Position numbers and translations under genes: made by a program. Positions 38,253 to 63,714 of a DNA stretch of 64,000 bases are shown here, piece by piece (the stretch's first letter is position 1; each line of letters starts with the position of its first letter). This DNA comes from Bacteroidales bacterium (GTDB taxonomy: Bacteria > Bacteroidota > Bacteroidia > Bacteroidales > UBA10428): NCBI GenBank assembly GCA_965230395.1, contig CBDDKV010000002.1:1920947-1984946 (forward strand), given 5' to 3'. Under the pieces are notes generated by a model. It had not been told where the DNA came from, searched no databases, and saw only the letters and a program-made list of their open reading frames with translations.

Positions 38253-38744
38253 AGTTATAAATATCGTATTGTATATTATTATCTCATTTCTTTATTTCTA
38301 CAAGGTACGGTTTGCAAAGCGTAGCCATAGCTACGGCGAAAAACTTTAACACAGCAGAAAGGAAAAAGAAGGGTGAAATATGAAATGTTATTTTGTGATC
38401 GCACTACTAGAGGGCCTGAGAAAGTATTATAGGGCCTGTAAGCCAAAAGAATACCTTTTTGAAGCACCAGGCAAGAAGTACGGTGCAGAAAGTGTAGCAA
38501 AAATAGTTGTCCGTACAGCGCGTAAAGCAGGGATAACAAAGAAGGTTACCCTCCCCCCCATACCCTGCGGCACAGTTTTACTACACACCTGCTTGAAGCA
38601 GGCGTTAACCTAAGGGGTATTCAAGTACTGCTTGGGCACAATTCAACAAAGGGCAGAGAGATATACACACATGTAGCAAGCCATACAATTCAGAATATAA
38701 TAAGTCCATTGGAATTCTTATATTTGAAAGAAAACAAACAATAA
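38253..38744 (+). pseudogene. tyrosine recombinase relic (5'-truncated, at least two frameshifts), same strand as the cassettes
   Basis: Frame 0 (38277-~38400) reads IISFLYFYKVR...TQQKGKRRVKYEMLF. Frame 1 (~38400-38558) reads [54 protein letters not shown]. Frame 0 from 38559 reads [54 protein letters not shown], with the stop at 38742-38744. This gives box I Arg, KGK, HxLRH, LLGH and the Tyr in YTHV. The second frameshift lies in a C7 run (38553-38559). There is no ORF for an N-terminal domain upstream. Confidence 0.8.
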
Positions 38745-38768
38745 ACGACAAAACGGTTCGATGAAAGG

Positions 38769-38811
38769 AAAATACCATTACCTTTTTTAAAAGTTATGCT
38801 ATTTTGTTGTT
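38769..38811 (+). repeat. attI-like junction motif ending in G|TT
   Basis: AAAATACCATTACCTTTTTTAAAAGTTATGCTATTTTGTTGTT lies immediately 3' of the recombinase relic. Near-identical copies end at 50449, 59332 and 61316. Sequence diverges completely right after the GTT in all four. Confidence 0.65.
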
Positions 38812-40106: not shown

Positions 40107-40113
40107 GTATAAC

Positions 40114-40197: not shown

Positions 40198-40230
40198 GTT
40201 GAACGGAACCGGGAGAAACGGGCCAACACT

Positions 40231-42295: not shown

Positions 42296-42330
42296 TGAGT
42301 TTTTGGGGAGGCAGATTCGAAAAGGAAAAA

Positions 42331-43299: not shown

Positions 43300-43341
43300 G
43301 ATAATTAATTTGTAAAGAACGATGCTACTTTGATATAGCAA

Positions 43342-43522: not shown

Positions 43523-43639
43523 TGGATCAGTGGTTTACGGAAAGTTGGCACATTTACTCAGCTCCGCCAACCTTTAGCTCACGACCAAAGGGAGTAAATC
43601 TGCGATTTGACGGGTTGTTTTAAAAAAGTAAATTTGTGT

Positions 43640-43714
43640 CAAAACGCAAATTTGGCTCAGTGCAAATTGACAGGTATGAGCTTCGAAATCACTTATGTTT
43701 TCTTATATTCAACA
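43640..43714 (+). repeat. right part of long-type attC-like site (S4)
   Basis: TTGACAGGTATGAGCTTCGAAATCACTTATGTTTTCTTATATTCAAC follows the family consensus TTGATAGGT..GAGCTTCGAAAT + ~24 nt. About 115 nt between the IS end and this arm are unresolved. Confidence 0.55.
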
Positions 43715-43773
43715 TTTTACGCCATATAAACGGCCATGGTGCAATAAAATAAACTGATTTAGAGGAAAAATTA

Positions 43774-44376: not shown

Positions 44377-44667
44377 ATGAATAATATTGAATACGGATTT
44401 AAAGTTAAACTTGTTTTTGAGAATGGCCTATCTGAGCAAGATTACGATTCTATAACTGATGAGTTCATAATGGATGCTATTGAAAAAAATGACCTTTTGT
44501 TTGGAGGCGGAGGTGATTTGAACGAGTATGAAGGTTTTGTTACATCGGCTGACAATAATAAAAGGTTAGATAATCATGATATTGAAAAGGTTAGAAAATG
44601 GATTGAGACTAAAAAGAAAGTAATAAAGAACTTTGAGTTAAGTGATAGAATTGATGCAAATAAATAA
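44377..44667 (+). CDS. cassette 4, gene 2: YggL/DUF469-like protein
   Basis: The pattern GFKVKLVFENGLSEQDYDSITDEFIMDAIEKNDLLFGGGGDLNEYEGFV...VRKWIE matches my recollection of the YggL family (GF.V...F..G.SE...D.FI...IE.N.L.F.G.G...EG). Confidence 0.6.
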   Translation: MNNIEYGFKVKLVFENGLSEQDYDSITDEFIMDAIEKNDLLFGGGGDLNEYEGFVTSADNNKRLDNHDIEKVRKWIETKKKVIKNFELSDRIDANK

Positions 44668-44670
44668 TAC

Positions 44671-44803
44671 GGCGTACACGCGGTCATAAAACATTACGCG
44701 GATAGTGCTAATTTTAAACTAAATAACAATTATTAAACAGTCGAGTAGCTTGATAGGTAAGAGCTTCGAAATGTGCAATCTTTCTTATTGCCATACGTTA
44801 GGG
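44671..44803 (+). repeat. attC-like site, long type (S1)
   Basis: The first box GGCGTACAC is complementary to the cassette-4 start ATTTTACGCC (43714-43723). The left arm is GCGGTCATAAAACATTACGCGGATAGTGC. The right arm is TTGATAGGTAAGAGCTTCGAAATGTGCAATCTTTCTTATTGCCATAC. The junction G|TTAGG is at 44797. Confidence 0.75.
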
Positions 44804-46533
44804 CACATCCCCCACATCAGGAGCACTTCCAAAATAGATAGAAAATAAAGGTATCTATTTCTCCAGAGCTGATTAAATCCTTAAGCTAACGGGATCGTAC
44901 CTACGATTAAAAGTTCTGCTAAATTTGGGCTGACTCTATGCAAGGCCGATTCTAAAATGGTACTATGCCTTTGGTAAAGTCCGAGCGTCATTCTTGTTGA
45001 AATGTAAAAGCCCCAGAAGTAGTGATTCCGAGGCTTGTTGATAATTCCAGTGGTGGTGTCAAAATTTTGGCAACCCCGTTCATGATAATTCTCAATTCAA
45101 AGATACATTTCCTTAGGGTCATTTTGTAGAACTTTTAAAACAAAAAAATGGCAAAGAAGAAAAAGATGGAAATGGAAGTAATAAACACCAATGCAGCAGG
45201 TATTGATGTTGGAAGCCGTTCGCATTATGTAGCAGTGGGACAATCATTGGAAGATGTGAAAGAATTTGGAGTTTATGCTGAAGGTTTAGTTGAGTTATGT
45301 AAGTGGTTGCTTTCATATGGCATTACATCGGTAGCAATGGAATCTACAGGAGATTATTGGCAAAATCTATATACAGAACTTTTAAAGCATGGTTTGGAGG
45401 TGGCCTTGTGCAATGGCAAGTTCACCAAGCATGCCAAAGGGAAAAAGACAGATGTTAAGGATTGTAGGCATATTCAAAAGCTCCATGCTTTAGGCCTTTT
45501 GGATAGTAGCTTTCTGCCTGATGAGACAACAGAGAAATTGCGGACATATTGCCGTCAAAGAAGTGGCATGATAGACCGTTCAGCCACAGCTTCACGTAAA
45601 ATGCAGAAATACTTGAAATTACTGAATTTTAGATTAGATGTAGTAGTGAAAGATGTATGTGGGCTTACAGGGTTGAAAATAATTGAAGATATATGCAAAG
45701 GTAATTTAGACCCGTATTCATTGGCGGAACATAGGCATTATAATTGCCGCAAGCCTAAAGAAGAAATAGCAAAAGCATTACATGGTAATAATAGGGAAGA
45801 TTTCTTATTTGGATTAAAGCAAGAGTATGAGGCATACCAGTTTTATCAAAAGAAGATAAAATCTTGTGACAAAATGATAGAGCAATTTGTTAAATCGGAG
45901 CTAAAGAAATCGCCAGGGAAACTTAAGCTTAAAACAACAGATAAGCCATATAAAAGAATCAATAAAAATGCCCCGGAAATAAAAAACTTTAACCAGATCG
46001 CATTTCAATATTTCGGGGGTATCGATTTAATGGCAATTGAAGGGGTAAGCCATGGAACAGTTCTGGCAATAATGAGCGAGATAGGACAAAATAGTTTTGA
46101 TAAATTCCCCTCATCAAAAGAATTTGTATCGTGGTTGCGTTTAGCTCCCAACAATAAAATATCGGGTGGAAAAGTATTGAGTAATAGGATACCAAAGGGC
46201 AGTAATAGGTTGAAAATTGCATTAAGGCAAGCAGCAAATGCTATTGGTAATTTGAAAGACACACATTTATCAGATTTTTTTAAACGGGTTGCATTTCGGA
46301 AAGGAAGACAAGCAGCAGTAAGTGCAACTGCACGAAAATTAGGTGTTATAATTTGGACAATGGTAACCAAAAAAGTACCTTACAATCCACCAGCAGAATA
46401 CCTGTTCCTTGACCAAAAAAGGAAGATGGGAATGGCAAAAAGAATAAAGAAACAAATGGCTAAATTTGACATAAAACCAGAAGAAATTGGAATTGGCAAC
46501 TCACTGACACCCAACTACAATTTTTGACGTTAG
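44802..46533 (+). mobile_element. IS110-family insertion sequence #2 inserted at the G|TT core of site S1
   Basis: ACGTTAG occurs at both ends (44795-44801 and 46527-46533). About 345 nt of structured noncoding left end precede the transposase gene, whose stop codon abuts the right-hand ACGTTAG. Confidence 0.8.
45148..46527 (+). CDS. IS110-family (DEDD) transposase
   Basis: It reads AAGIDVGSRSHYVAV...MESTGDYWQNLY (DEDD N-domain) and has the C-terminal IEGVSHGTVLAIMSEIG...SGGKVLSNRIPKGSNRLKIALRQAA. It is only distantly related to the transposase of IS #1. Confidence 0.9.
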   Translation: MAKKKKMEMEVINTNAAGIDVGSRSHYVAVGQSLEDVKEFGVYAEGLVELCKWLLSYGITSVAMESTGDYWQNLYTELLKHGLEVALCNGKFTKHAKGKKTDVKDCRHIQKLHALGLLDSSFLPDETTEKLRTYCRQRSGMIDRSATASRKMQKYLKLLNFRLDVVVKDVCGLTGLKIIEDICKGNLDPYSLAEHRHYNCRKPKEEIAKALHGNNREDFLFGLKQEYEAYQFYQKKIKSCDKMIEQFVKSELKKSPGKLKLKTTDKPYKRINKNAPEIKNFNQIAFQYFGGIDLMAIEGVSHGTVLAIMSEIGQNSFDKFPSSKEFVSWLRLAPNNKISGGKVLSNRIPKGSNRLKIALRQAANAIGNLKDTHLSDFFKRVAFRKGRQAAVSATARKLGVIIWTMVTKKVPYNPPAEYLFLDQKRKMGMAKRIKKQMAKFDIKPEEIGIGNSLTPNYNF

Positions 46534-48288: not shown

Positions 48289-48752
48289 CCCCGCTCGTGA
48301 GGGCTTGTAGCCTTCACGAATAACGAAACAACAAAGAGCCATACTAATAAAGTGAGGCATTTTGGTTTAATAAGGCAACAAACTGGCATATTGTATCTGC
48401 TATTGTTTTGCAAAAACAACAAAATGTGAGGAAAATATTGATTTTATAGTTATAAACATGAGTGGTGCAACCACTCATGAGCGAAGTAACTAAAAGTAGG
48501 AAATTTCTAGTTTTGAAATGTTTTTTATTTAGAATAAGCCTGTCCAGCTTTATAGTCCCCGCTCGTGAGGGCTTGTAGTTTTCACGAATAACGAAACAAC
48601 AAAGAGCCATACCTATAAAATGTGGCTTTGGTTTAATAAGGTAACAAACCGGCAGATTGTATCTGCTATTGTTTTTCAAAAACAACAAAATGCGAGGAAA
48701 ATATTAATTTTATAGTTATAAACATGAGTGGTGCAACCACTCATGAGCGAAG
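48289..48752 (+). repeat. two tandem ~198-bp noncoding units, period 268 bp
   Basis: Units 48289-48486 and 48557-48752 are near-identical. Each starts CGCTCGTGAG and ends CTCATGAGCG (inverted termini). Each contains the hairpins CGTGAGGGC/GCCTTCACG, TTGTTTT..AAAACAA and CATGAGTGG-TGCAA-CCACTCATG. Confidence 0.8.
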
Positions 48753-48873: not shown

Positions 48874-49224
48874 GTGGTTTTACCGAAATTTTCATATATG
48901 CTAAAGAAAAATAAGTATCAACATATTCAGGCGTACGTATCTAATTGTGCTGATGACAAAGAGATAAATTTATTAATCTTAGGGTTGTTTTACTTTTCAA
49001 AAAAGCAATATTCAAAGGCAATTGAATTGTTAAACGAATATAAACTGGCAGAATATAGTTTCTTGAAGTACCAGTTAATCGCAGATTGGAAATACGAATT
49101 CTTATCAAATAAACGTGAATATGAAAATGTAATAAATGATTACCAAGTTGCGTGGGATATTGCAAAAAATGAAATAAGTAAAGCTGTTATTAATAACCGA
49201 ATTAAACACATAAAGTATAGATAA
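48874..49224 (+). CDS. hypothetical protein
   Basis: 116 aa, with an alternative ATG at 48898. Its stop overlaps the next start in TAATG at 49222-49226. Confidence 0.55.
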   Translation: MVLPKFSYMLKKNKYQHIQAYVSNCADDKEINLLILGLFYFSKKQYSKAIELLNEYKLAEYSFLKYQLIADWKYEFLSNKREYENVINDYQVAWDIAKNEISKAVINNRIKHIKYR

Positions 49225-49967
49225 TGAAAGGGTTTAAACAAATTGCATTTTTTCTGCTATCAATTAGTTCATTAATCAGTTGTACTTCGACAAGAAAGAT
49301 TCAGAAGAACCTTAATGCCAATAGTTATTCTATGGTATATTTAATGGATTCGGAGATTTCTAATTTTAAAAAGGATATAGGAGTTTCAATTGATTCAATA
49401 AATTATAATGCAGGCATATTGAATGATAGTACTAAAGTTACTAGGGAAAAGGGATGGTTTATACCTTTATTATTTGCTTACATATGGCATTCAGAGAATA
49501 ATTGTATTCAAGGAGAGTCAATGTTTGAAGAAGATTTACCTTGCTTTTTAAGACAATCAATAATTAAAGAAATTAATAGGTCAGGGAGGTTTTATTATTT
49601 TGATACGTTAGAAACAGATTACACTTTAAAATTAGAGATAAATGATATTGGAACAAAAGGTCCATACATTAGTAAAGGGTATGCATACTCACTTGGATTT
49701 TATGATGTGTATTCTTTTTCGGATGTTGCAGGTCCGGCATTCTCACATTTAGATATTACCTATGAGTTAATATTAAATAATCACGTTGTAAAGAGCAATA
49801 CATTTTCTGTTAATAGATTCACAGAACAAATTAACAAATCATACACAACAAGAGCTTTACTGCAGAGGGATTATGCGATAAGTATGGTTGAAGCCACCTC
49901 TAGCAATTTCAAGGAAATAATTAAATTGATTGTAGATGATTTAAATACATATTTTAAAGAAAAGTAG
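49224..49967 (+). CDS. lipoprotein, unknown function
   Basis: It has a lipoprotein signal (MKGFKQIAFFLLSISSLISC) and appears translationally coupled to the preceding ORF. Confidence 0.7.
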   Translation: MKGFKQIAFFLLSISSLISCTSTRKIQKNLNANSYSMVYLMDSEISNFKKDIGVSIDSINYNAGILNDSTKVTREKGWFIPLLFAYIWHSENNCIQGESMFEEDLPCFLRQSIIKEINRSGRFYYFDTLETDYTLKLEINDIGTKGPYISKGYAYSLGFYDVYSFSDVAGPAFSHLDITYELILNNHVVKSNTFSVNRFTEQINKSYTTRALLQRDYAISMVEATSSNFKEIIKLIVDDLNTYFKEK

Positions 49968-49985: not shown

Positions 49986-50449
49986 CAATAAATAGGACTA
50001 AGAGCGGTCTGCACGTCCCGGTTGAACTGCATCCAGGTTACAACAACCCTATTCGTATTTTACTAAACGATATTGTTGTAGGAAGATTGACCTGGGCAAC
50101 GTAAGTGGGTTGCTGAGTGGAACAGAAACCGGGACTTCAGACTGAAGCATTTCAAAAAGCAGGTTCGAAGCAATACTTTCCGGCCTTATAAACTAACATT
50201 AAACAGGAGTTGCAAAAAAATAACGCAAATAAGGCAGACCGGTTTTGAAGGAAATAAAAAAAACATACATTAGGTACGTTTAATAAAACACAGAAGGCAT
50301 CAACAGCCGATTATGAGCATTTGCCAATTTATTACAAATGCTAAGTGAGCTTATGTGTTAGATTACCATAAGACATTAACAAAATTCTACTTTGAAATGT
50401 ATAGAAGAAATATCATAACCTTTTTTAAAAGTTATGCTATTTTGCTGTT
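49986..50449 (+). repeat. noncoding module A (recombinase-relic-like + attI-like terminus)
   Basis: By eye, about nine in ten positions are identical to 60843-61316 and, over its 3' 347 nt, to 58986-59332. It ends in ...CCTTTTTTAAAAGTTATGCTATTTTGCTG|TTAGGCAC. Confidence 0.85.
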
Positions 50450-50531
50450 AGGCACAAGCGGAGGAGCGACTGTACAAATAATGATTCTAAACCGATAAAA
50501 AAGACAGAATAACATGATAGCCAACGCGCAA

Positions 50532-50591
50532 AGCAAGAGTGTTCAGCCCTTCCCTCAACCGTCCCTTCGCTTCCACACTCTTGCTTTTTTT
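50532..50591 (+). terminator. terminator-like hairpin in the leader of the giant cassette ORF
   Basis: AGCAAGAGTGT (50532-50542) pairs with ACACTCTTGCT (50575-50585) across a 32-nt loop and is followed by T7. It lies 65 nt upstream of the ATG at 50657. Confidence 0.4.
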
Positions 50592-50656
50592 GCCGACGCA
50601 CACGCTTAGGGGATATTGATTTTAGAATTGTCTGAAAAGAAAAAACAAATATTTTT

Positions 50657-53600
50657 ATGGAATCGGACAAAAAATTGCACCCTGATAGAGAAATGAAAAA
50701 TAAAATGGATTTAATATCTCACAAACAAAAGGCAGTAATCCTGATAATAACATTGCTTTTTTCACTCAATTCTTACAGCCAGAAATTAATAGAAAGTCGA
50801 CAAACGAGTTATTACACCTACATTTATAAGATAACTAAAAAGGAAGCTGAAAAGATTTACAAAAAAGATATTTGGAAAGTTGACACCTCCTTTTTTCACA
50901 CATTGGTTGATTCATTTCCAACAGATAGTCAATATTATGGAAGACTTCAACAAGGACACTATTTAAAAACCTTTGCTGAAAAAGAGAAACAAAAACTTTC
51001 AATAACAACTATTCAGGATTTTGATGTTTTTATTTTTAACAACAACACTGATTTATGTGTACAGGTGTTTGATTTAAAAGGAAACCTTATAGAGGATGCT
51101 GAAGTTACTATTCGACTGAAAAACCTTCGTTTCAATAAAAAAACACAGTCCTACCTTGATAAAAAATCAAATCAAAAAGGATTGTTAAAGGTTACATATA
51201 AAGGTTTTACAGCCTATTACAATCTATCCAGACAATATAACAACTCTTTTATTAAGCGAGGAACACGAAAGGTTGTTTATGGAACTCCTATAAAATATGT
51301 TTGGATGCCAGTAAACTTTGTAATATTTCTTCCAATAGATGGAGTAAAATCAATTGTAAAAGGTTGGCCTCAAGGCACTATTTATAGAACCAAGAATTTC
51401 TTTGTTAAGTCCTTCAACAAAATTGCTTGTATGTTCGATGATTACTATTGCGATTATTACACAAATAAAAAATTCAGGAATAAGCATACTGGTTACATGG
51501 TATTCAATAAACCGAAGTACATGCCCGGTGATACGGTGAAATTTAAAGCCTATTTATTAACGAAAAAGGGAAATCCAATAGATGAAAATGTTCATGTTAT
51601 TTTGCAAAACAGCAGAAAAGATATTGAATTAACCGAATTAGCGCCATATAGAAGTGGAGGTTATAATTACGAATTTTATTTGCATGATTCACTTCAGCTA
51701 CAACTTGACCGGAATTATACAATTCGCATAGAACTTAACGATAGAAAAGAATATATAAACGGTTCTTTTAAATATGAAGATTACGAATTATCAAAGAATC
51801 AACTTTCATTGAGAGTTGATAAAAAGGAACATTTTCGAAATAAAAAAATTACTCTTTATGCCAAAGGTACAGATGAAAATGATTTAAACCTGATGGATGC
51901 ACGGATTGAAGTATTATTGACTCCAAAATCAATAAATAAATATTTTGAGAACCATGTGTTCATTCCTGATACTTTACTCTTCCATAAAAAGAAGCTTAAT
52001 CCGACCGATGAAACCGAAATAGTATTATCAGATTCAACGTTTCCTAAAGCAAACTTCGAATATACAATAACTGTTAGGTTGCTAACTTCTGACAATGAAT
52101 CTATTTCCGAAAATGAAGAGATTTCATACTTCTACGAATCAGAAAAATTCGATATTAAAGTAAAAACTGATTCCATCCATTTTGAATATTTAAAAAATGG
52201 CGAAAAAGAATCAAAAGAGGTAACTATAAATTCACAAGACAATTTTGGAAATAAAACTCCAGTTTATAATGGGATTACACCCTGTAGCATCGAATTAAAC
52301 CCTTACTTTTCTTCTTATACAATTCAAACAGATTCAATTTCAGAAACCATAAATATTTCAGAAGAATCATCTTTAATACAATGCTTTTCAGAAAGAACAT
52401 CAGATTCAGTTTACATTGTTGTTAATAATCCTCGTAAGATTCCATTTATCTACAATATTTACAAAAAGAATAGCCAACAAGCATCTGGCTACACCGATTC
52501 TTTGGATATTCGTAAAAAAACATCTTCCAAGCAAAATTATTTTGTGTCAATTCGTTACTTATGGGGCGGTCAAGTTAAGGAAGAAAATTTCAGAATACCT
52601 TTAATTGACAAAAAGCTTAATATTTCCGTTACTCAACCTAAAATTGTTTACCCCGGACAAAAATCAAGAATTGACATTCTGGTTACAGATACCGAAGGAA
52701 AGCCAGTTGAAGGAGTTGATTTAACCGCATTTTCATTAACAAAGAAGTTTGATTATACTGCTCCTGAACTGTCATATCTGGGGAAATCAAAGAAAAACAA
52801 AAGCGTCATAAATAATTTCAATTTTAAAAACTTCAATCTAAATACCCATTCTGGTTTGCAGTTAGACTATGATGCATGGAAAATTATAGCAGGTATTGAT
52901 TCTATTGAATATTATAGATTTATTTATCCGAAAAACTCCATTTATTGTTTTGAATATAAAACAATTGATTCAATAACACAGTTTGCTCCTTTTGTTATTT
53001 CAGATGGTGCAATTCAACCAGTTCATGTTATTTATGTGGATAATAAGCCAGTTTATTTTAGTTGGTCTACAAATACCCGTCCCTATTCATTTAATATTGA
53101 TAGTGGCTATCATCAAATAAAACTCAGAACTAATTTCAGGGAAATTACAATTGACAGTTTGCATTTTGAAGAAGGTAAAAAGTTAATTCTTAGCTTAGAG
53201 CAGGATGCAAAAAATGCTAATATTAAAATAAATAAGGTTGAAGCAAAACTAAGTGATTTTGAAAAACGACTTCTTTATAAATATATCGTTCCTTATAGGG
53301 ATAATTTCGGAGAACAATATGCTTATATAGAACAAAACGAAAATATTCAATTACTTACTCCTGAATCAAAATATCAAAGAAATAACTATGCCGGGCCTCT
53401 GGTTGGTAATTTAACTTTTCAACTTGTAGACAGTTTTTCGACTACAATTAATCATGAACCGTTTTTTGAATATGAGTTTTTACCTGAACTTTTAAAAATG
53501 CGTAGTATTGATTCTAAAAGATTTCCGGAATACTTATATAGCTATAAAGCAAACAATACTTTAAATGATGCTGTGCTAACCAAACAAGTTGTAGAAAAAC

Positions 53601-56600
53601 AATGGAGGGATTATTTAGACTCAAAAAGATATCTTACTGCCAGATACAGATATCCTAATTCTACAAGTCATGGAGCTGGTAAACTATTAATTAATTTTAA
53701 GAGGAATGATGAGCTAATTAAAGATATTCCTTTGAATGTTTTGATTTTTAGATATGATAATCATCAATTTCTGAGAGTTTATCCGGGCAATAGTTCATTT
53801 ATACATGAATTGCAAAAAGGTTATCACAAATTAATATTCTTTTATTTAGGAGCGAAATACCATATTGAAGATTCAATACTTATTCAACCGAATGGATTGA
53901 ACTATTATGAGTTTGAACAACCAGTTTCATATAAGAAAGATACTTTTAGTCTGTACGTAAGCAATGTTATTGAAGAAATGCTTTTCAAACCAAATCCATA
54001 TTATGAAAATGAAGAAAAAGAATTGAAGCAAATTTATAATATGTATCAGCAACAGTTTAAATATACTGGTGTTGGTGATATTGTTGAAGGGTATGTTTAT
54101 GAAGAGGAAGCTGGTGTACCTCTACCTGGTGTTACTGTTCTAATAAAAGGCACAACATATGGAACAGTTACAAATTTAGATGGATATTATTCAATTAAAG
54201 TACCACGCGGAAATAGTGTTTTAGAGTTTTCTTTTATAGGTTATGAAAGTCAAGAAGTAATTGTTAATGGTCAAAATACAATTAATGTTACTTTTACTCC
54301 AGAACTTCTTATGATGCAGGAACTTCAAGAAGTCGTTGTTGTTGGCTATGGAACAACAAGGAGAGCTGATTTAACAGCATCAATTACAACTGTAACTACA
54401 AGTAGTCTATTAGGAGGTATGCCCGGAGTAAGTGGGAATGTTTCGGAAAGTTTGCAAGGGAGAGTTGCTGGTGTTTCTATTTCATCCAATAGCGGAGCTC
54501 CTGGGAGTGGTGTAGAAATAAGAATAAGAGGTGCTTCAACTATTGAGTTTGATAAACCCCCTCTTTATATCATCAATGGAAATGTTTATACTGGAGATAT
54601 TTCTGAGTTAGACCCAGCAATTATTCAAAATATTGAAATTTTAAAAGATGCAAGTGCCACAGCAATTTACGGTTCAAGAGGGGCAAATGGGGTTGTTATA
54701 ATTGAAACGGAAGCTGGAGCTTTTAAAACTACTGAAGCTTCACTTAAAGGTGCTGAATATGATGAGACATTTTTGGAAGCGGCAAGCCAGTCAAGCTCTA
54801 TTCGCGATAATTTTTCAGATTATGCATTTTGGCAACCAAATTTAATAACGGATAAAGAAGGGAAAACAGGATTTGATGTCATTTTCCCCGATGACGTTAC
54901 CAGTTGGGAAACATTCTATTTTGCTATGAATGATAATAGACAGTCTGGACAATCAGAGGGACTTATAAAATCTTATAAACCACTTATGGCTCAACTTGCA
55001 GTTCCCAGATTTTTGGTGCAAAGTGATACTTCATATGCAATTGGTAAAGTTCTAAACTACACTCCCGATTCAGTTAAAGTTGAAACAAAATTTGAAGTTG
55101 ATGGTAAAGAAATGCTAAATACTTCAAGATTTTGTAATAACTCATTGATTGATACGCTATCATTTTTTGCTTCGACTGATTCTGTAGAATTAAAATATTT
55201 TCTTGAGACTAATGACAATTATTTTGATGGTGAACAAAGAAACATTCCCGTTTTTTCAAAAGGACTTGAAACAACTAAAGGTAATTTTTATGTGCTTGAT
55301 AAAGATACAACTATTCAGTTGCGGTTTGATTCTACATTAGGTACTGTAAATCTTTATGCCTGGGCAGATATTCTTGATGTTATTGAAGATGAAATTAGCC
55401 ATTTGATTAAATATAAATATTCTTGTAATGAACAAATTGCATCAAAATTGAAAGCTCTGCTGGCAGAAAAGAATATTGCATATTACAAGGGTGAAAAATT
55501 CAAAAATGATAATGAGGTTGAAAAACTAATCAGGTTATTGAAGAAAAATCAAAAAGATAATGGTTTATGGGGTTGGTGGAAAAATTCAGATGAAAGTTTG
55601 TGGATTAGTTTACACATATTAGAAGCCATTACACATGCTGAACAACTTGGTTATAGAACCTCGATAAATAAAAATCAGATTACGGAATTACTAATATGGG
55701 AGTTAGAAAGTTCTCGTGATTTCTATGAGAAAATACGAATACTAAAAATTCTGAATCTTTTAGGGTCTCAAATAAATAATCAACCCTATATTACTGATTT
55801 GGAAAGAACTAAGAATATTTCATTAAATGGGCTACTTAGTATAATTGAGTTGAAACAACAATGTGGTATTGATTACAATTTAGATACGCTGGATTATTAT
55901 AAAAAAACAACCTTATTTGGAAACACTTACTTTTCAGATGAAACTAAGGCGACTAACTTATTAAATAACGATATTCAAAATTCATTACTTGCATATAAAA
56001 TTATTAAAGCCGATTCAATAACAGATAGTCAAGGATTAAACGAGCTTCAAAATTATTTTCTTGAAAACAGAAAAAATGGATATTGGAGAAACACTTTTGA
56101 ATCAGCCCAAATCATAGAAACAATATTGCCCGATTTATTAAAAGGTCAATCTGAATTAAGTAAACCTGAATTGTCATTAAAAGGCGATATTAACAGGACT
56201 ATTTCTGAATTTCCTTTTGAAATGAATATTAATTCAACTCAAAAGATTGAAGTGTCAAAAACAGGAGACTTTCCAGTTTATTTAACATCCTACCAAAGAT
56301 ATTGGGATAATAATCCAACATTAAAAATGGAGGACTTTGAAATTTCTACAAGTATTAATAATAAAGCAACAACCATTTTAACTGCTGGTCAAGAGACTAA
56401 ACTAATCACAAAAGTAACTGTTAAAAAAGACGCTGAATATGTAATGATAAACATTCCAATTCCTGGAGGCTGTTCGTATACTGATAAGAAGAATAATTTA
56501 CGAAATGAATCACATAGAGAATATTTTAAGAATGAAACAACAATCTTCTGTGATTATTTATCTAAGGGTGAATATACTTTTGAGATTGAATTGATAACTA

Positions 56601-56701
56601 GGTATTCCGGGACATATACAATTAATCCTGCAAAGATTGAGTTAATGTACTTCCCAACTTTTAATGCAAATAATGAGATAAAAACGATTAAGATAAAATG
56701 A
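50657..56701 (+). CDS. giant secreted alpha-2-macroglobulin-like protein with embedded CarboxypepD_reg + TonB-plug segment
   Basis: 2014 aa. A signal peptide follows the alternative ATG at 50693. An MG2-like block is present (KYMPGDTVKFKAYLLTKKGNP). A SusC-type segment spans ~54070-54710 (GVTVLIKGTTYGTVTNLDGYYSIKV; VVVGYGTTRRADLTASITTV; LQGRVAGVSI; IEILKDASATAIYGSRGANGVVIIET). An A2M block follows (FWQPNLITDKEGKTGFDVIFPDDVTSWETFYFAM). The thioester-type motif YKYSCNEQIASKL has its Cys codon at 55424. Confidence 0.85.
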   Translation: MESDKKLHPDREMKNKMDLISHKQKAVILIITLLFSLNSYSQKLIESRQTSYYTYIYKITKKEAEKIYKKDIWKVDTSFFHTLVDSFPTDSQYYGRLQQGHYLKTFAEKEKQKLSITTIQDFDVFIFNNNTDLCVQVFDLKGNLIEDAEVTIRLKNLRFNKKTQSYLDKKSNQKGLLKVTYKGFTAYYNLSRQYNNSFIKRGTRKVVYGTPIKYVWMPVNFVIFLPIDGVKSIVKGWPQGTIYRTKNFFVKSFNKIACMFDDYYCDYYTNKKFRNKHTGYMVFNKPKYMPGDTVKFKAYLLTKKGNPIDENVHVILQNSRKDIELTELAPYRSGGYNYEFYLHDSLQLQLDRNYTIRIELNDRKEYINGSFKYEDYELSKNQLSLRVDKKEHFRNKKITLYAKGTDENDLNLMDARIEVLLTPKSINKYFENHVFIPDTLLFHKKKLNPTDETEIVLSDSTFPKANFEYTITVRLLTSDNESISENEEISYFYESEKFDIKVKTDSIHFEYLKNGEKESKEVTINSQDNFGNKTPVYNGITPCSIELNPYFSSYTIQTDSISETINISEESSLIQCFSERTSDSVYIVVNNPRKIPFIYNIYKKNSQQASGYTDSLDIRKKTSSKQNYFVSIRYLWGGQVKEENFRIPLIDKKLNISVTQPKIVYPGQKSRIDILVTDTEGKPVEGVDLTAFSLTKKFDYTAPELSYLGKSKKNKSVINNFNFKNFNLNTHSGLQLDYDAWKIIAGIDSIEYYRFIYPKNSIYCFEYKTIDSITQFAPFVISDGAIQPVHVIYVDNKPVYFSWSTNTRPYSFNIDSGYHQIKLRTNFREITIDSLHFEEGKKLILSLEQDAKNANIKINKVEAKLSDFEKRLLYKYIVPYRDNFGEQYAYIEQNENIQLLTPESKYQRNNYAGPLVGNLTFQLVDSFSTTINHEPFFEYEFLPELLKMRSIDSKRFPEYLYSYKANNTLNDAVLTKQVVEKQWRDYLDSKRYLTARYRYPNSTSHGAGKLLINFKRNDELIKDIPLNVLIFRYDNHQFLRVYPGNSSFIHELQKGYHKLIFFYLGAKYHIEDSILIQPNGLNYYEFEQPVSYKKDTFSLYVSNVIEEMLFKPNPYYENEEKELKQIYNMYQQQFKYTGVGDIVEGYVYEEEAGVPLPGVTVLIKGTTYGTVTNLDGYYSIKVPRGNSVLEFSFIGYESQEVIVNGQNTINVTFTPELLMMQELQEVVVVGYGTTRRADLTASITTVTTSSLLGGMPGVSGNVSESLQGRVAGVSISSNSGAPGSGVEIRIRGASTIEFDKPPLYIINGNVYTGDISELDPAIIQNIEILKDASATAIYGSRGANGVVIIETEAGAFKTTEASLKGAEYDETFLEAASQSSSIRDNFSDYAFWQPNLITDKEGKTGFDVIFPDDVTSWETFYFAMNDNRQSGQSEGLIKSYKPLMAQLAVPRFLVQSDTSYAIGKVLNYTPDSVKVETKFEVDGKEMLNTSRFCNNSLIDTLSFFASTDSVELKYFLETNDNYFDGEQRNIPVFSKGLETTKGNFYVLDKDTTIQLRFDSTLGTVNLYAWADILDVIEDEISHLIKYKYSCNEQIASKLKALLAEKNIAYYKGEKFKNDNEVEKLIRLLKKNQKDNGLWGWWKNSDESLWISLHILEAITHAEQLGYRTSINKNQITELLIWELESSRDFYEKIRILKILNLLGSQINNQPYITDLERTKNISLNGLLSIIELKQQCGIDYNLDTLDYYKKTTLFGNTYFSDETKATNLLNNDIQNSLLAYKIIKADSITDSQGLNELQNYFLENRKNGYWRNTFESAQIIETILPDLLKGQSELSKPELSLKGDINRTISEFPFEMNINSTQKIEVSKTGDFPVYLTSYQRYWDNNPTLKMEDFEISTSINNKATTILTAGQETKLITKVTVKKDAEYVMINIPIPGGCSYTDKKNNLRNESHREYFKNETTIFCDYLSKGEYTFEIELITRYSGTYTINPAKIELMYFPTFNANNEIKTIKIK

Positions 56702-56866
56702 TTGCAACCCACACCGTCCCTTCGCTGCAAGGCACATTGGCAAAACGCACAAAGCCAACACTTCAACCAAATTTTGCCAAAGAGCCTTTTCGCCCGTCCT
56801 GCTCCAACGCAGGACAGAGAGACAGTGCAAACTTGATAGGTATATTGATTGAGATAATAACCGCCA

Positions 56867-57002
56867 GTGCCTGACAGGCGGTCATAAAACATAGTGCGGA
56901 AAGTGGTATATTTGAGCAACATAACATTTAATCAACGGCAGCAACGGTCTGATAAGTCGGTGCTTCGAAACGCGCTACGTTTCATACCGCCAAACGTAGT
57001 AA
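56867..57002 (+). repeat. attC-like site, long type (S2)
   Basis: The first box GTGCCTGAC pairs with the cassette start GTTAGGCAC (50447-50455) at 8/9 plus one G-T. The arms are GGCGGTCATAAAACATAGTGCG and CGCGCTACGTTTCATACCGCC. The motif TGATAAGTCGGTGCTTCGAAAC is present. The junction G|TAG is at 56996. Confidence 0.75.
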
Positions 57003-57031
57003 CGCATTTTGGCAGACCGTGAAATAATAAA

Positions 57032-57778
57032 TTGATTCATAAAATGATAAATAGAATTTTGCAGATAATAATATGCTTGACAATGATTTCATGTTCAAGC
57101 CCAAATAAAAATAATGACATGAGTGTTTTCAAAAAGCTATTCGGAAAGAAAGAGGTTAAAAAGGAATTTACACAAGAAGAATTAGATAAGGATTATGAAT
57201 TAAAAATGGCTGGATTGGAAGCTGTTTTAGGAAAGTCTCATGGATTAGTAGGACATGCGATAATTCCATTTGATATTGGTGGAGCAGTTGATATGTATTA
57301 TTTTCCGAACGGAATCAAAGGTACTGGATTTGCTACAATGGAGCTATTACAACCCGATGGAAAAGGACCGATTCCGAATAAATTAGGAACTTATGAGATG
57401 GTTGCCTTTACAAAACTTGATTATGTTCAAGATACGACCGAGACAAATCCTTTTAATTTAATCGAAAGAAAGATTTGTGGGATTTTTACAGGGATTGGCA
57501 ATTATTCGTTTCAAGCAAAACTTGAGCCTTTAGAGACGATAGAACTACCACAAAAAGAGGGAGAACCAAATCTGTGCTTGATACTTGATGACTACAAGAT
57601 TGAAAATAAGGAATTTAAAATTGGTGATAGGAAACATGGATTGCTTTTAGTTATGGAAGTACATCGAGCTGAAATGGAATATGCAATGGAAAATGGCACT
57701 GGTAAACTGATTGATAAACTGAAAGCAAATGGATTTTATCCTTATTCTGATATGGGTAGAAAGTCTGTGATAGAGTAA
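57032..57778 (+). CDS. SUFU-like (suppressor-of-fused family) protein, tentative
   Basis: VGHAIIPFDIGGAVDMYYFPNGIKGTGFATMELLQP...LGTYEMVAFTK resembles bacterial SUFU-domain proteins. The ATG at 57119 (MSVFKKLFGKKE) is a plausible true start. Confidence 0.5.
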   Translation: MIHKMINRILQIIICLTMISCSSPNKNNDMSVFKKLFGKKEVKKEFTQEELDKDYELKMAGLEAVLGKSHGLVGHAIIPFDIGGAVDMYYFPNGIKGTGFATMELLQPDGKGPIPNKLGTYEMVAFTKLDYVQDTTETNPFNLIERKICGIFTGIGNYSFQAKLEPLETIELPQKEGEPNLCLILDDYKIENKEFKIGDRKHGLLLVMEVHRAEMEYAMENGTGKLIDKLKANGFYPYSDMGRKSVIE

Positions 57779-57784
57779 AAAACA

Positions 57785-57918
57785 ACGCTACAACAAAAAA
57801 TATACGTAATGCGGGGTGATATGATTAAATTTAAGCTTAATACATTTATTAAACCAAATATTGGTTTGATAGTTTGGAGCTTTGAATTTCCTCGCTACTT
57901 ATATTCAAGTAGTTATCA
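57785..57918 (+). repeat. attC-like site, long type (S5)
   Basis: The left arm is CTACAACAAAAAATATACGTAATGCGGGG and the right arm is CCTCGCTACTTATATTCAAGTAG. The centre ACATTTATTAAACCAAATATTGGTTTGATAGTTTGGAGCTTTGAAT is homologous to S2 and S3. The junction G|TTATC is at 57912. Confidence 0.7.
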
Positions 57919-57951
57919 GTAAGCTAAATTGAGTGATAAAATGAAATATGT

Positions 57952-58866
57952 ATGAAAATAAAAATAGCAACAAGTCAGTTTTCTGTTAGTTCTAATATTC
58001 GAGAGAATAAAAGGAAAATAATTGTTCAGATTAGTGAGGCAAAGAAATCTGGAGCACAACTAATACATTTTCCTGAAGGAAGCTTATCTGGATATGCTGG
58101 AATAGATTTTGACTCATTTAAGGAATTTGACTGGAAAGAATTGAATGTTTCGACACAAGAGATCATCCTAGAAGCAAAGAGCAGAGGGATGTGGATTATA
58201 CTTGGTTCTGCACATAGACTTGAAAATCATAAGCCACATAATTGTTTGTATATAATTGATAGTAAGGGATTTATTGTGGATAGATATGACAAAATGTTCT
58301 GTGCTGGAACTGATAAAGAAAATACCGAAGATTTATTACATTTTTCACCGGGTGATCATTTTACAACATTTGAAGTTTTTGGAATTAAATGCGGGGTTTT
58401 GATTTGCCATGAGTATAGATATCCTGAGTTGTACAGGGAGTATAAGAAAAAGGATGTAGAAATTATGTTTCACTCATATCATGCTGGAAATATGGATGCT
58501 ATACGACAATCCAGTATGGAATCAGAAGTTGGGGAGGAATTTTTCGCTTTCAATAATGGAAGGACAATACCTGAAATTACAATGCCTTCGACAATGATCT
58601 CATATGCTGCAAACAATTACATGTGGATAAGTTGTAGCAATACTTCAGCCCAGGAAAGCTGCTGGGCGAGTATGATAGTCAGACCTGATGGTGTTGTTTC
58701 AGGAAAACTTGATAAAAATAATGATGGAATACTTATCACTGAAATTGACACAGACAAACGATATTATGATTCAACAAAACATTGGAGAAATAGAGCTATG
58801 GATGGACTTTTTCATAGTGGTAGTTTAGTTGATGATAAGAGGTCGAAAAATAGAAATGAAATTTAA
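57952..58866 (+). CDS. carbon-nitrogen hydrolase (nitrilase superfamily) protein
   Basis: Glu, Lys and Cys triad contexts are present: LIHFPEGSLSGY, VDRYDKMF and CGVLICHEYRYPELY. Confidence 0.8.
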   Translation: MKIKIATSQFSVSSNIRENKRKIIVQISEAKKSGAQLIHFPEGSLSGYAGIDFDSFKEFDWKELNVSTQEIILEAKSRGMWIILGSAHRLENHKPHNCLYIIDSKGFIVDRYDKMFCAGTDKENTEDLLHFSPGDHFTTFEVFGIKCGVLICHEYRYPELYREYKKKDVEIMFHSYHAGNMDAIRQSSMESEVGEEFFAFNNGRTIPEITMPSTMISYAANNYMWISCSNTSAQESCWASMIVRPDGVVSGKLDKNNDGILITEIDTDKRYYDSTKHWRNRAMDGLFHSGSLVDDKRSKNRNEI

Positions 58867-58872
58867 AACCGC

Positions 58873-58991
58873 ACACCTGATTTGGCAATTGCCAAGGACT
58901 GGGACAAGAGTTTATTGGTCACAGCAATCAGTGCAAGTTTTTTGTCTGAAGCAAAGCGGGTTTAATTCTTTTAGCCAATAAGTCATAAGTG
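58873..58991 (-). mobile_element. internally deleted relic of IS110-family element #1
   Basis: 58873-58943 matches 42373-42443, the transposase 3' coding region that includes the palindrome TTGGCAATTGCCAA. The relic ends in ...CATAAG|TGG, the same terminus and junction as at 43517-43525. It abuts the nitrilase stop codon, so that cassette has no attC-like site. Confidence 0.55.
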
Positions 58992-59332
58992 GGTTGCTGA
59001 GTGGAACAAAAACCGGAACTTCAGGCTGAAGCATTTCAAAAAGCAGGTTCGAAGCAAAACTTTCCGGCTTTATAAACTAACATTAAACAGGAGTTGCAAA
59101 AAATAACGCAAACAGGGCTGGCCGGTTTTGAAGGAAATAAAAAAATATATACATTAGGTACGTTTAATAAAACACAGAAGGCATCAACAGCTGAATATAA
59201 GCATTTGCCAATTTATTACAAAAGCCTGGAGAGCTTATGTGACAGATTACCATAGATATTAACAAAATTCTACTTTGAAATGTATAGAAGAAATATCATT
59301 GCCTTTTTTAAAAGTTATGCTATTTTGTTGTT
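58986..59332 (+). repeat. noncoding module B (5'-truncated copy)
   Basis: It is homologous to module A from 50102 onward. It ends in ...TTTTAAAAGTTATGCTATTTTGTTG|TTGTGCTGC. Confidence 0.85.
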
Positions 59333-59389
59333 GTGCTGCATGCGAAGACATAGGCTCGTGACTATTAAACCGATTGATTATAAAAATTA

Positions 59390-59881
59390 ATGGAAAAATT
59401 CATTGAAATACTTGATAGTCCGATTTCATTAATTATTGGTGGGATAACGATGATTTTTGGAATAATTTTTCCGTTTAGAATTGCACTGATAAATTATAAA
59501 AAAGCAAAAGAAAGTAAATGTTGGTCAATGACCTCTGGATTGATTACAAAATCTAATATCAATTGTTACAAGGATAATGAAGGCACAAAAATGTATAAAC
59601 TAGATTTTGAATATTCATACCAGATTAATAATAAACAATATTTTTCAAAAGGCAGATTTTTAGATGAAGAGTACGGACAAAGTTGGATTGGAAAGCTACA
59701 ATATTTTGTGGACAATAATCAGATAAATCAAAATATCAAGGTGTATTATGACCCAAGAAAACCTGAAAAGTCTGTGGTAATTAAAGGATTAAAACCAAGA
59801 TACTATTTAATGATTTCGGTTTACTTTATTCTTATAGTATCCGGAGTTATATTGATTTCAATAGGACTAAATAAAATTTGA
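59390..59881 (+). CDS. DUF3592-like membrane protein
   Basis: An N-terminal TM helix and a C-terminal TM helix flank a beta-rich core with FEYSYQINNKQYFSKGRF...IKVYYDPRKPEKSVV, a pattern typical of DUF3592. Confidence 0.65.
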   Translation: MEKFIEILDSPISLIIGGITMIFGIIFPFRIALINYKKAKESKCWSMTSGLITKSNINCYKDNEGTKMYKLDFEYSYQINNKQYFSKGRFLDEEYGQSWIGKLQYFVDNNQINQNIKVYYDPRKPEKSVVIKGLKPRYYLMISVYFILIVSGVILISIGLNKI

Positions 59882-59898
59882 AAAAGTAAAAAGCACTA

Positions 59899-60030
59899 CA
59901 GCACACACAATGTGTATAATTCATAAGGGGTTCAGTAGTTTGCGAACAATATCACTCGCATCAATTTTTGGTAGTAATTTGATAGGTTTAAAGCTCGCAA
60001 TCCCTTACGAAATCAAAAACTCAACTTGGT
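59899..60030 (+). repeat. attC-like site, long type (S6)
   Basis: The first box CAGCACACAC is complementary to the cassette start GTTGTGCTG (59330-59338) with a one-nt bulge. The left arm ATTCATAAGGGGTT pairs with AATCCCTTACGAAAT. The motif TTTGATAGGTTTAAAGCTCGCAAT is present. The junction lies near 60025. Confidence 0.65.
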
Positions 60031-60047
60031 AACAGATTACCTCAGCA

Positions 60048-60238
60048 ATGAAACCAATCAATAAAGATTAATATTGTGCATGTTGTGGTTATGACACATA
60101 TGATAAATTAGTATATTACAATTGTCCAATTTGTTTTTGGGAGGATGATCCATTCCAATTGAGGACGATGATTTTACCAATGGTGCAAATAATGTTTCAT
60201 TAAAGACAGGTCAAGAGAATTTTGAGAGATTTGATTAG
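60048..60238 (+). pseudogene. CPCC-family cysteine-rich protein, disrupted
   Basis: It reads MKPINKD-stop(60069)-YCACCGYDTYDKLVYYNCPICFWEDDPFQL. After a 1-nt frameshift near 60160 it continues EDDDFTNGANNVSLKTGQENFERFD-stop. Confidence 0.6.
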
Positions 60239-60341
60239 GAATTGCAGAAAACCAAACAACGAGGACAATAGAAAACCAAATTGGACTGATTGAAATAATT
60301 AAAGAATAACTTCAAGGACCAATTATTAATAAATAGATTTC

Positions 60342-60836
60342 ATGTTTAAGATATTTAAAAAGCAAAAAAAAGACAAGCAATTTGATAGTTTCGATAAACC
60401 AAGATTTGATGAGAAGATTCAATCAGAACAGTTGATTTACTCAAGGCCATCTGATGATTTCTACAATGATTTATTGGAGTTATTAATCCCAAGCTTTTTT
60501 AATGAATCAAATCCAATTCATAAAAAGTTTGATGAGGAGTTTAGAAGTAATATCTCTGAATTATCCATTCTATTTAATGATATATTAGAAAGTGGACTCC
60601 AAACTGATACAATTGATAAGTTTTATTTGAGAATAGAGCATCTAGCCAAAAAGGAAAGAGAGGTCCCATTTATAACTTCACAAACATTATTGTACTGGTA
60701 TCATTTTATTCAAAATATTAAGATTGAGGTAAGTTCAAGAATTGGCGATAATGCCATAAACAAGTGTGATATTCTATCTGATAAGATTAAGCAATTGTTT
60801 GAGGATTTTAGAAAAAAAAACAGCCATAAAAAATAA
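60342..60836 (+). CDS. hypothetical protein
   Basis: 164 aa, predicted soluble and helical, with no motif recognised. Confidence 0.55.
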   Translation: MFKIFKKQKKDKQFDSFDKPRFDEKIQSEQLIYSRPSDDFYNDLLELLIPSFFNESNPIHKKFDEEFRSNISELSILFNDILESGLQTDTIDKFYLRIEHLAKKEREVPFITSQTLLYWYHFIQNIKIEVSSRIGDNAINKCDILSDKIKQLFEDFRKKNSHKK

Positions 60837-60842
60837 CGTGTG

Positions 60843-61316
60843 CCAATGAATAAGACTACGAGCGGTCGGCACGGCCCGGCGATGCGTCCCGGTTGAACTG
60901 CATCCAGGTTACTACAACCCTATTCGTATTTTACTAAACGATATTGTTGCAGGAAGATTGACCTGGGCAACGTAAGTGGGTTGCTGAGTGGAACAGAAAC
61001 CGGGACTTCAGGCTGAAGCATTTCAAAAAGCAGGTTCGAAGCAAAACTTCCCGGCCTTATAAACTAACATTAAACAGGAGTTGCAAAATAACGCAAATAG
61101 GGCTGACCGGTTTTGAAGGAAATAAAAAAAACATACATTAGGTACGTTTAATAAAACACAGAAGGCATCAACAACCGAATATGAGCGTTTGCCAATTTAT
61201 TACAAAAGCCTGGTGAGCTTATGTGTCAGATTACCATAGATGTTAACAAAATTCTACTTTGAAATGTATTGAAGAAATATCATTACCTTTTTTAAAAGTT
61301 ATGCTATTGGGTTGTT
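60843..61316 (+). repeat. noncoding module C (full-length copy)
   Basis: It is collinear with module A and has a 12-nt insertion near its 5' end. It ends in ...TTTTAAAAGTTATGCTATTGGGTTG|TTGCAGC. Confidence 0.85.
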
Positions 61317-62707: not shown

Positions 62708-62860
62708 GACTGCAATAAAGCACGAAACGCTAATGCGCGGTCATAAAACATTGCGCGGATAGTGCTATATTTGTATGAAATAACATTTAATCAACAGCTT
62801 AGCGGGTTGATAAGTTTGTGCTTTGAAATGCGCAATGTTTCATGCCGCAGGCCGTTGTGG
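62708..62860 (+). repeat. attC-like site, long type (S3)
   Basis: The arms GCGGTCATAAAACATTGCGC and GCGCAATGTTTCATGCCGC form a near-perfect inverted repeat. The central hairpin is ATCAAC...GTTGAT and the motif is TTGATAAGTTTGTGCTTTGAAAT. The junction G|TTGTGG is at 62854. A possible first box CTGCAA at 62709 matches the cassette start TTGCAG, but this match is weak. Confidence 0.7.
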
Positions 62861-63044
62861 GCAATAGGGCGAATCACTCCGACAAACTAAAATCATGACA
62901 AATAAACAGATAGAAAAAGATTTTGCAAAAAGTAATACAGACTGATTAATAAATTTATAACACTTAATAAACTACTAAAAGACAAGATTAATATTAATAA
63001 ACGGAGAATCAATTAAAATCATAAATCACATCGAAATTAAGAAA

Positions 63045-63530: not shown

Positions 63531-63545
63531 TAAGTACTGCCTAAT

Positions 63546-63714
63546 TATTGTATGTAAGTCTTTACAGTCATCGTATTTAAGTAGCGAAAGAGTGGTGGTT
63601 TTCATTGTTGACTAGCTTTATGTATAAATTAATCTTATCCCACCACTCTTCCATTCTTTTAATTTTATTATAAAAACAAGAAATTGCAAACTTAGGAGGT
63701 ATAAAAAACATAAG
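63546..63714 (-). mobile_element. internally deleted relic of IS110-family element #1 that retains the left-end noncoding region
   Basis: 63548-63572 matches 42911-42936, which is internal transposase coding sequence. It is joined directly to a copy of 43370-43522, the whole left-end noncoding region ending ...AAAAAACATAAG. Confidence 0.75.

Follow-up and report, generated by a model that had tools for sequence, protein, structure and literature searches.

The window analysed here (the whole stretch, 64,000 nt) comes from a Bacteroidales bacterium of the GTDB lineage UBA10428 (assembly GCA_965230395.1, contig CBDDKV010000002.1, positions 1,920,947 to 1,984,946 of the forward strand), and contains an integron-like array of gene cassettes in which a noncoding module recurs three times (M1, M2, and M3). 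The array is headed by the relic of an IntI-like tyrosine recombinase (38380..38745, plus strand), of which only the C-terminal ~120 aa remain; the relic is co-oriented with the cassettes, has both NCBIfam and Pfam matches, and has relatives that are 49–65% identical to it. The window was compared with two other strains, L001/L205 and L204, both from one European Nucleotide Archive (ENA) sample. The window copy of the relic carries a frameshift within a poly-C run (38553-38560), and in strain L001 (10001-10363) it is an uninterrupted open reading frame (ORF) of 120 aa (P0001; 98% identical); the N-terminal truncation is identical in all three strains. An exact protein look-up matched P0001 and a 96-aa cassette protein, and gave no match for eight window proteins. 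Downstream of 38811, the array consists mostly of same-strand ORFs with sites of ~140 nt between them.

M1 (49986..50449) and M3 (60844..61316) are full-length copies, and M2 (58987..59332) is truncated at its 5′ end, lacking the first ~120 nt; all three lie on the plus strand. An earlier note on this DNA, made by a model from the sequence, had reported three copies, and its placement of them is confirmed, with M2 starting at 58987 and M3 at 60844; its description of them as near-identical is slightly generous for pairwise identities of 90–93%. From left to right, a module comprises an R″ box (the first box of an integron attC site) 7–18 nt after an ORF stop codon, ~65–120 nt matching the end of an IS91-family insertion sequence (IS), an interior of ~300 nt, and a ~44-nt copy of attI. 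The preceding stop codon lies 18 nt upstream of M1 and 7 nt upstream of M3; M2, which lacks the IS-end domain, is preceded at a distance of ~40 nt by a 76-nt fragment of the 3′ end of an IS110 transposase (58868-58943, a copy of 42369-42444). The longest ORF within any module is at most 47 aa, and none was called in the module of strain L001. The modules lie 58–208 nt upstream of cassette ORFs, and their ends are 11.6–22.5 kb into the array. The nested inverted repeats previously described in the 5′ third are real, and on both strands the modules fold better than shuffled sequences (z = −2.75 and −4.9), which is attributable to the transposon-end hairpins and the attI hairpin.

The last ~44 nt of M1, M2, and M3 (attI-like ends at 50407..50449, 59290-59332, and 61274-61316, plus strand) are those found after the recombinase relic (38768-38811), as the earlier note had observed, and are 92–95% identical to this resident copy; an 18-mer from the shared stretch occurs four times in the window vs. 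0.44 expected. The resident site (38768..38811, plus strand) consists of an imperfect hairpin (AAAATACCATTACCTTTT / AAAAGTTATGCTATTTT) and then GTTGTT, with the crossover at the last G|TT; the full order is relic stop codon, 22 nt, GGAAAATACCATTACCTTTT/AAAAGTTATGCTATTTT, and GTTGTT|AGCATGC. The same layout (integrase stop codon, 0–28 nt, hairpin, 5–9 nt, GTT, first cassette) was found in no fewer than 16 of the 24 related loci, in which the best-hairpin scores after the integrase stop codon average 8.1, compared with 5.4 ± 1.1 for shuffles. Between the window and both L001/L205 and L204, ~99% homology extends to exactly 38811 and then ends. Judged from these sequence comparisons, 38768-38811 is the genuine attI of this integron type.

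The module ends share the hairpin and GTTGTT of this attI, and likewise terminate at a G|TT junction with a cassette; in contrast to the resident site, which stands beside the integrase relic at the head of the array (22–23 nt after the relic stop codon), they lie deep in the array, follow transposon-derived DNA, and are remote from integrase genes. As proposed, the sequence after the terminal GTT is unique to each copy (M1 is followed by TTAGGCAC, the start of the cassette that encodes a 2014-aa protein), and five different cassettes follow module ends across the three strains, which confirms these ends as cassette junctions. The reading of the terminal motif as attI-like, and as one reiterated within a single array, thus holds; a canonical integron has one attI, whereas this array has several attI-like ends. 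The preferred DNA fold in the copies is the ~16-bp imperfect hairpin within the shared 44 nt, rather than the 80-nt terminal hairpin suggested earlier. A search with the attI core pattern gave no exact match in genome contigs, and the same pattern together with two interior patterns gave none in viral contigs. Near attI, the sole Bacteroidetes-type −7 box (TAnnTTTG) is TATATTTG (38719-38726, plus strand), which lies within the final codons of the relic, is directed toward the array, and is a candidate cassette promoter; the modules carry CTACTTTG, one base short of this box, at a loosely similar spot.

For attC, a covariance model (R1) was built from 11 aligned sites (from the window, a sister strain, and a Bacteroidota metagenome-assembled genome), with compensatory changes at 13 of the 17 predicted pairs. 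In the window, R1 matches an ordinary ~140-nt attC at 44667..44806 (plus strand) and further sites at 56865-57005, 57784-57922, 59896-60034, and 62724-62863, as well as weaker ones at 40113-40208 and 43601-43724. The cassette start that follows G|TT is complementary to the R″ box of the cassette's own attC, as in integrons. The earlier claim that the starts following the modules pair in this manner with the first box of their own downstream attC was substantiated for M1 (GTTAGGCAC vs. GTGCCTGAC at 56868) and M2 (GTTGTGCTG vs. CAGCACACAC at 59905), and is less clear for M3.

The modules are found where an attC would be expected. M1 takes the place of the attC of the cassette with ORFs 48874-49224 and 49224-49967, and M3 that of the cassette with ORF 60342-60836. 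The R″-like box of M3 (TGCCAA|T) is complementary at 5/6 positions to the start of its own cassette (TTGGTA, from 60026, after the attC at 59896-60034), and the box of the module of strain L001 (L001mod; CGCACAA) at 6/7 positions to the cassette start TTATGCG. At the right, the module abuts the next cassette at G|TT, with no attC remainder. With an R″ box at the left and G|TT at the right, the module thus takes the exact place of the attC in three cassettes. The modules thus resemble attC sites in position, in having an R″-like box complementary to the cassette start, and in the 3′ G|TT; they differ in length (350–470 nt vs. ~140 nt for the attCs here), in lacking paired L″/L′ stems, and in that the two module ends do not pair as R″ and R′. 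R1 gave no match in the modules even with filters off (E ≤ 10), compared with five clear attCs elsewhere in the array.

The origin of the 5′ end is indicated by its relatives. An nhmmer profile of four module copies first matched L052, a Proteiniphilum locus, over its initial ~105 positions, and at least 120 metagenomic loci were retrieved by pattern from the matching stretch. Approximately 100 metagenomic loci match the module profile (E 1e-11 to 1e-5), with the match confined to positions 2 to ~65–122; blastn of M1 against full-length IS copies is significant over about the first 34–70 nt, with E down to 4e-6. In the window, the IS91-family end spans 49986..50095 in M1 (by blastn and nhmmer) and ~60844-60965 in M3, both on the plus strand. 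In many loci the conserved IS end reads TAAATAGGACTCTGAGCGGTCGGCACGACCCAGCGATGAGTCGGTGTTGAACTACACCC, and ~270 nt beyond it the opposite strand encodes a 390-aa transposase (Zn_Tnp_IS91 plus Y2_Tnp), followed by a 301-aa tyrosine recombinase (Phage_integrase) that is 39% identical to the relic in the window. Full-length elements (examples among loci L084-L203 are L128, 868-3309, L197, L176, L095, and L164) are 2.44–2.48 kb in length and have a distal end that reads ...GCTATCCCGCAGGGATTTAGTTCAAC. In IS91 and ISCR elements, the end downstream of the transposase is oriIS, and the conserved end is designated the oriIS side because of this organisation. The distal end (a hairpin plus TTTAGTT) has the same layout as an integron attI. 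These elements also have a TAnnTTTG box directed outward, in the direction of the cassette downstream.

The conserved end has the properties of a structured DNA terminus. Its helix P1 (GGACTC/GAGTCC, GGAATA/TATTCC, GGAGTA/TACTCC, and others) shows compensatory changes in 5/6 pairs, and 88.6% of P1 cells are paired vs. 25–47% in controls with the partners slid. M3, L001mod, and one of three copies in strain L204 (L204b) align without gaps to 29 IS ends, and in M1 a 13-nt deletion removes the inner hairpin P2. Beyond this end, the homology does not continue: neither the ~300-nt interior nor the 3′ end of the module has an nhmmer match in ~200 fetched loci, among which the interior is known from the source species alone, and Smith–Waterman comparison of the interior with IS subterminal regions gave borderline scores at most (L088 and L107), which are unconvincing. 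The modules contain no Y2 HUH transposase, and blastx against the transposase and recombinase of L128 was empty. Of what would be expected of a non-autonomous IS91 derivative, they have the oriIS-side end and orientation-specific insertion without duplication, and lack a terIS-side end.

The IS elements share their insertion site with the modules. The 108 IS insertions have 105 distinct left flanks, with the consensus A-rich...C(−10)...Y-A-A|, which is the 5′ end of an attC, and in at least nine loci an attC model match starts within the last ~10 nt of the IS. With the attC flank at the left and the attC match at the right end of the IS, the element has therefore inserted inside the R″ box. 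At L052, the R″ box GCCGCTAA and the first bases of its own cassette, TTAGCGGC, are complementary without mismatch. Every module copy likewise sits at a cassette R″ box, with the left junction following YAA, so the refuting case envisaged for an array-specific role, namely modules dispersed through the genome unrelated to cassette junctions, was not encountered. Miniature derivatives of the IS, which likewise follow directly on the YAA of R″ boxes, are 280–334 bp in length: one 332-bp element is present at three sites (L088 3190-3522, L102, and L121), and further examples occur at L193 and L115. Most of the attC behind the miniature element at L102 has been lost.

The three strains carry seven module copies, the four outside the window being L001mod in strain L001, and L204a, L204b, and L204c in strain L204. 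Of these, L204a is truncated at the 3′ end and L204c at the 5′ end. The left flank of L204b is that of M1 (22/25) and its right flank is the Fic cassette downstream of M3 (28/32); its informative sites switch from M1-like to M3-like, and its interior agrees with that of M2 at 99/99 positions. In L001mod, the 5′ end resembles M3 and the centre M1 (98/98 positions). Such mosaics with re-assorted flanking cassettes are read from sequence as ongoing homologous recombination between copies. This homologous exchange explains how both module ends can look like junctions when all three strains share one and the same integrase relic. In strain L204, a 5′-truncated module is followed by GTT|ATCGGC and genes for an OLD-like protein (TOPRIM/AAA_15) and a UvrD-helicase (18051-20291), which resemble a Gabija-type defence pair and appear to form a cassette.

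We propose, with a probability of roughly two in three, that each module descends from an IS91-family element that targets attC, as a decayed and non-autonomous derivative whose far end is a copy of the host attI. The homology at either end, the site of insertion, the substitution for attC, and the mosaic make-up of the copies are observed directly, and the joining of the attI copy is the part that we infer. By this route, a progenitor IS91-family element would have inserted into the R″ box of an attC. Its distal end would then, most economically, have become the attI hairpin-GTT by one-ended read-through of the IS91 type, in which transposition past the lost end would terminate at attI; the attI hairpin-TTTTGTTGTT is similar to the element's own hairpin-TTTAGTT. 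Recombination between the attI-type G|TT and the G|TT of the attC R′ box would finally delete the remaining attC. The present copies are probably not competent for transposition, and the 350–470-bp units may now act mainly as portable homology by which neighbouring cassettes are shuffled through RecA-type recombination.

Several points weigh against this proposal. The assignment of the conserved end as oriIS draws on the published IS91/ISCR organisation. M1 has lost hairpin P2, and M3 retains 3/6 P1 pairs. A profile of 14 distinct distal ends (hairpin GCTATCCCGCAGGGAT + TTAGTTCAAC; GCTATCCCGCAGGGATTTAGTTCAAC) has no match in the modules at E ≤ 100, and descent from a whole IS is therefore demonstrated for one end only. 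No parent element with the module interior was found in the ~200 fetched loci. An IntI-type exchange at G|TT cannot move the sequence to the left of the attI crossover, the entry of which into the array is only deduced.

Moreover, the direction of descent could be the reverse: the 44 nt could be native to a mobile module, as an attI mimic, and 38768-38811 could be an extremely 5′-truncated module that was fused beside the relic by a deletion, the original attI having been lost. Truncation of modules at the 5′ end does occur (M2 and L204c), and deletions have clearly affected the relic locus. The hairpin and TTTAGTT layout of the canonical IS distal end is shared with attI, and two IS subfamilies (L135 and L167) carry TTATGCTATTTTTG near the distal end, resembling GTTATGCTATTTTG of the module. 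However, 38768-38811 conforms in position, spacing, and form to the attI layout of at least 16 related integrons: its hairpin begins 23 nt after the stop codon, vs. 0–28 nt elsewhere, and the 5′ arm starts with GGAAAATA, comparable to GGAA(T/A)ATA elsewhere. The same junction is also present in all three strains, and no element with a AAATATCAT..GTTATGCTATTTTGTTGTT distal end was found outside the source species. We regard this reversal as unlikely, yet as the main alternative.

A bolder extension of the IS91 origin is that IS91 elements with an IntI-like recombinase might be mobile units of attI plus integrase, in which the hairpin-GTT end would be an attI mimic that the element's own recombinase exchanges with the bottom-strand GTT of the attC R″ box; the modules would then be stripped, portable attI platforms that seed entry and deletion points. 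This is speculative, and we consider it distinctly improbable. If true, such elements would be hybrids of a rolling-circle transposon and an integron, and would provide a route for the birth or movement of integron platforms.

It is very improbable that the module is a new, very long attC class, or a dedicated long recombination site recognised whole by the integrase. Its attC position, the R″-like box complementary to the cassette start, the terminal G|TT, and the folding of both strands described above would accord with such a site. However, no attC covariance-model match was obtained, the two module ends are unpaired with each other in predicted folds, and where the copies differ, the substitutions disrupt the proposed helices instead of compensating. 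In addition, the sequence adjacent to R″ is a transposon end that is found with a transposase at many loci.

Equally little supports the view, to which we give a slightly lower probability still, that the module is a structured noncoding RNA or a promoter cassette serving the downstream cassette. The proximity of the modules to cassette ORFs and the negative fold z-scores had suggested it. However, Rfam 15 gave no match at gathering score in the 64 kb, and at E ≤ 10 yielded two chance-level snoRNA matches (E 2.6 and 8.6). The TAnnTTTG −7 box, scanned for in place of sigma-70 motifs because Bacteroidota promoters differ, is absent from both strands of every module, vs. 69 occurrences in the window. 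The covariation is located in the IS end and is kept whatever the downstream gene, as expected for a DNA hairpin acted upon by an HUH transposase, and the interior is restricted to the source species.

Descent of the module, through decay to noncoding DNA, from a second copy of the integron platform (the 3′ half of the recombinase together with attI), for which the shared last ~44 nt and a short AATTCT..TTTGAAA match upstream in both had spoken, is hardly credible: with the last 45 nt of the module removed, 31–234/300 or 152–263/400 shuffles score at least as high as the module–relic alignment (local, global, and 3′-anchored), blastx gave no match to either the relic or the IS recombinase, a gene remnant of the same age as the 92–95% identical attI part should have stayed recognisable, and the 5′ part is demonstrably derived from IS91. 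The collinear similarity to the 3′ coding half of the relic that the earlier note had described is thus not upheld, and its derivation of the module body from an integrase 3′ end falls on the ground that it had itself named, namely that no significant similarity exists beyond the last ~45 nt; its suggestions of an RNA or a promoter fared no better. A remnant of a group II intron (IIC-attC) was rejected, there being no GUGYG start, domain V, or Rfam match, as was an IS110 bridge RNA or miniature IS110, the modules being dissimilar to both IS110 copies in the window.

The host system (38380-64000 in the window) belongs to an integron-like family that appears to be widespread in Bacteroidota (examples are loci L004-L029, L015, L059, L061, L065, and L077), with a predicted co-oriented integrase, a hairpin attI, and attC sites of ~140 nt with a conserved centre (..GATAGG..). 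We fetched 80 loci that encode relatives of the recombinase, and scanned 32 of them with R1; all matches (48/48) are downstream of the recombinase and on the same strand, indicating that the integrase is co-oriented with the array. Intact integrases of the family are 375–380 aa in length and have an N-terminal extension of ~110 aa. A separate family of short recombinases was considered and rejected: the best 120 listed matches are all ≤209 aa, but they are truncated or frameshifted genes and calls from internal methionines. Against TIGR02249, full-length relatives (L023, L009, and L052) match in two stretches, the larger of which ends at ~178, with 186–225 bits vs. a cut-off of 265; the C-terminus of the relic matches positions 241-313, and the intact relatives appear to skip ~179-240. 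From this split match below the cut-off, it follows that the family integrase lacks the IntI-specific insertion. Thus, of the attributes of an integron, the host system has the array, with covarying attC sites and complementarity between R″ and the cassette start, and lacks the IntI-specific insertion. With IntegronFinder 2.0, only a single complete integron was reported in Bacteroidetes proper (PMC9024848). Integrase-based integron finders would probably miss this family, or call it a CALIN (a group of attC sites without an integron-integrase).

Several other features of the array were observed. The 2014-aa protein (with MG2/A2M/bMG10, CarboxypepD_reg, and Plug matches) is encoded at 50657-56701 in a single cassette; this cassette, at ~6.5 kb, is very large for an integron cassette, and is kept together with its upstream module in strain L001/L205. 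A ~268-bp unit is present as a tandem duplicate at 48289-48752 (segments 95% and 90% identical), and in strain L204 the same sequence is fused directly to the 3′-truncated module (L204 12231/12234). Two IS110-family transposases are encoded at 42331-43341 (minus strand) and 45148-46527 (plus strand), within elements at 42240-43505 (minus strand) and 44807-~46540 (plus strand) that lie at attC borders; strain L001 holds the uninterrupted target TGTATAAAAAACATAAG at the first of these sites. One IS110 element left the 76-nt fragment near M2 (58868-58943), as well as an internally deleted copy at 63541-63714. The second cassette contains the relic of the C-terminus of an IS91-family transposase (40427-40876, minus strand; 38% identical to the transposase of L128), beside which no module-like end was recognised. 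An IS (10431-12900) with a Transposase_29 gene and a helix-turn-helix (HTH) gene on the minus strand splits the first cassette beyond attI in strain L001; strain L204 is without this IS, and has the same first cassette start (GTGCGTC) as L001.

Among known systems, the relatives of the module 5′ end are most readily compared with the rolling-circle insertion sequences of the IS91/ISCR family, which have a Y2 HUH transposase, oriIS and terIS ends, and one-ended transposition, and of which some known members carry an upstream tyrosine recombinase. The relatives are complete elements with a Zn_Tnp_IS91 plus Y2_Tnp transposase, a Phage_integrase, and a structured end ~270 nt downstream of the transposase; they insert in fixed orientation at a short target, without target duplication, and have truncated and miniature derivatives. 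The modules differ in having neither a transposase nor the canonical distal end, which is instead a copy of the host attI. The described target of IS91 is GTTC/CTTG, whereas the elements here target the attC R″ box. Among recombinases without the IntI insertion, the tyrosine recombinases of IS91 elements have been reported to be the nearest to IntI (bioRxiv 10.1101/542381). Like IS1111-attC elements (IS110 family) and group IIC-attC introns, the elements home to the attC of cassette arrays in one orientation; they differ in employing an HUH Y2 transposase and a tyrosine recombinase instead of a DEDD transposase or a ribozyme with reverse transcriptase (RT), and in that the insertion point here lies inside R″. 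No description of attC-targeting IS91-family elements was found in the literature searched, which was a limited library and does not prove novelty.

The module repeat can accordingly be accounted for without a new RNA or a new recombination site. The host is a poorly catalogued integron-like system in Bacteroidota, and given a functional integrase, the attI copies within the array could provide additional points of cassette entry or deletion. Present at more than 100 independent R″ sites, IS91-family elements with an IntI-like recombinase would add a class of cassette-array parasite beside IS1111-attC elements and IIC-attC introns. Such elements may swap an attC for an attI-type end, and their remnants would provide tracts of homology through which cassettes are re-assorted even where the integrase no longer works.

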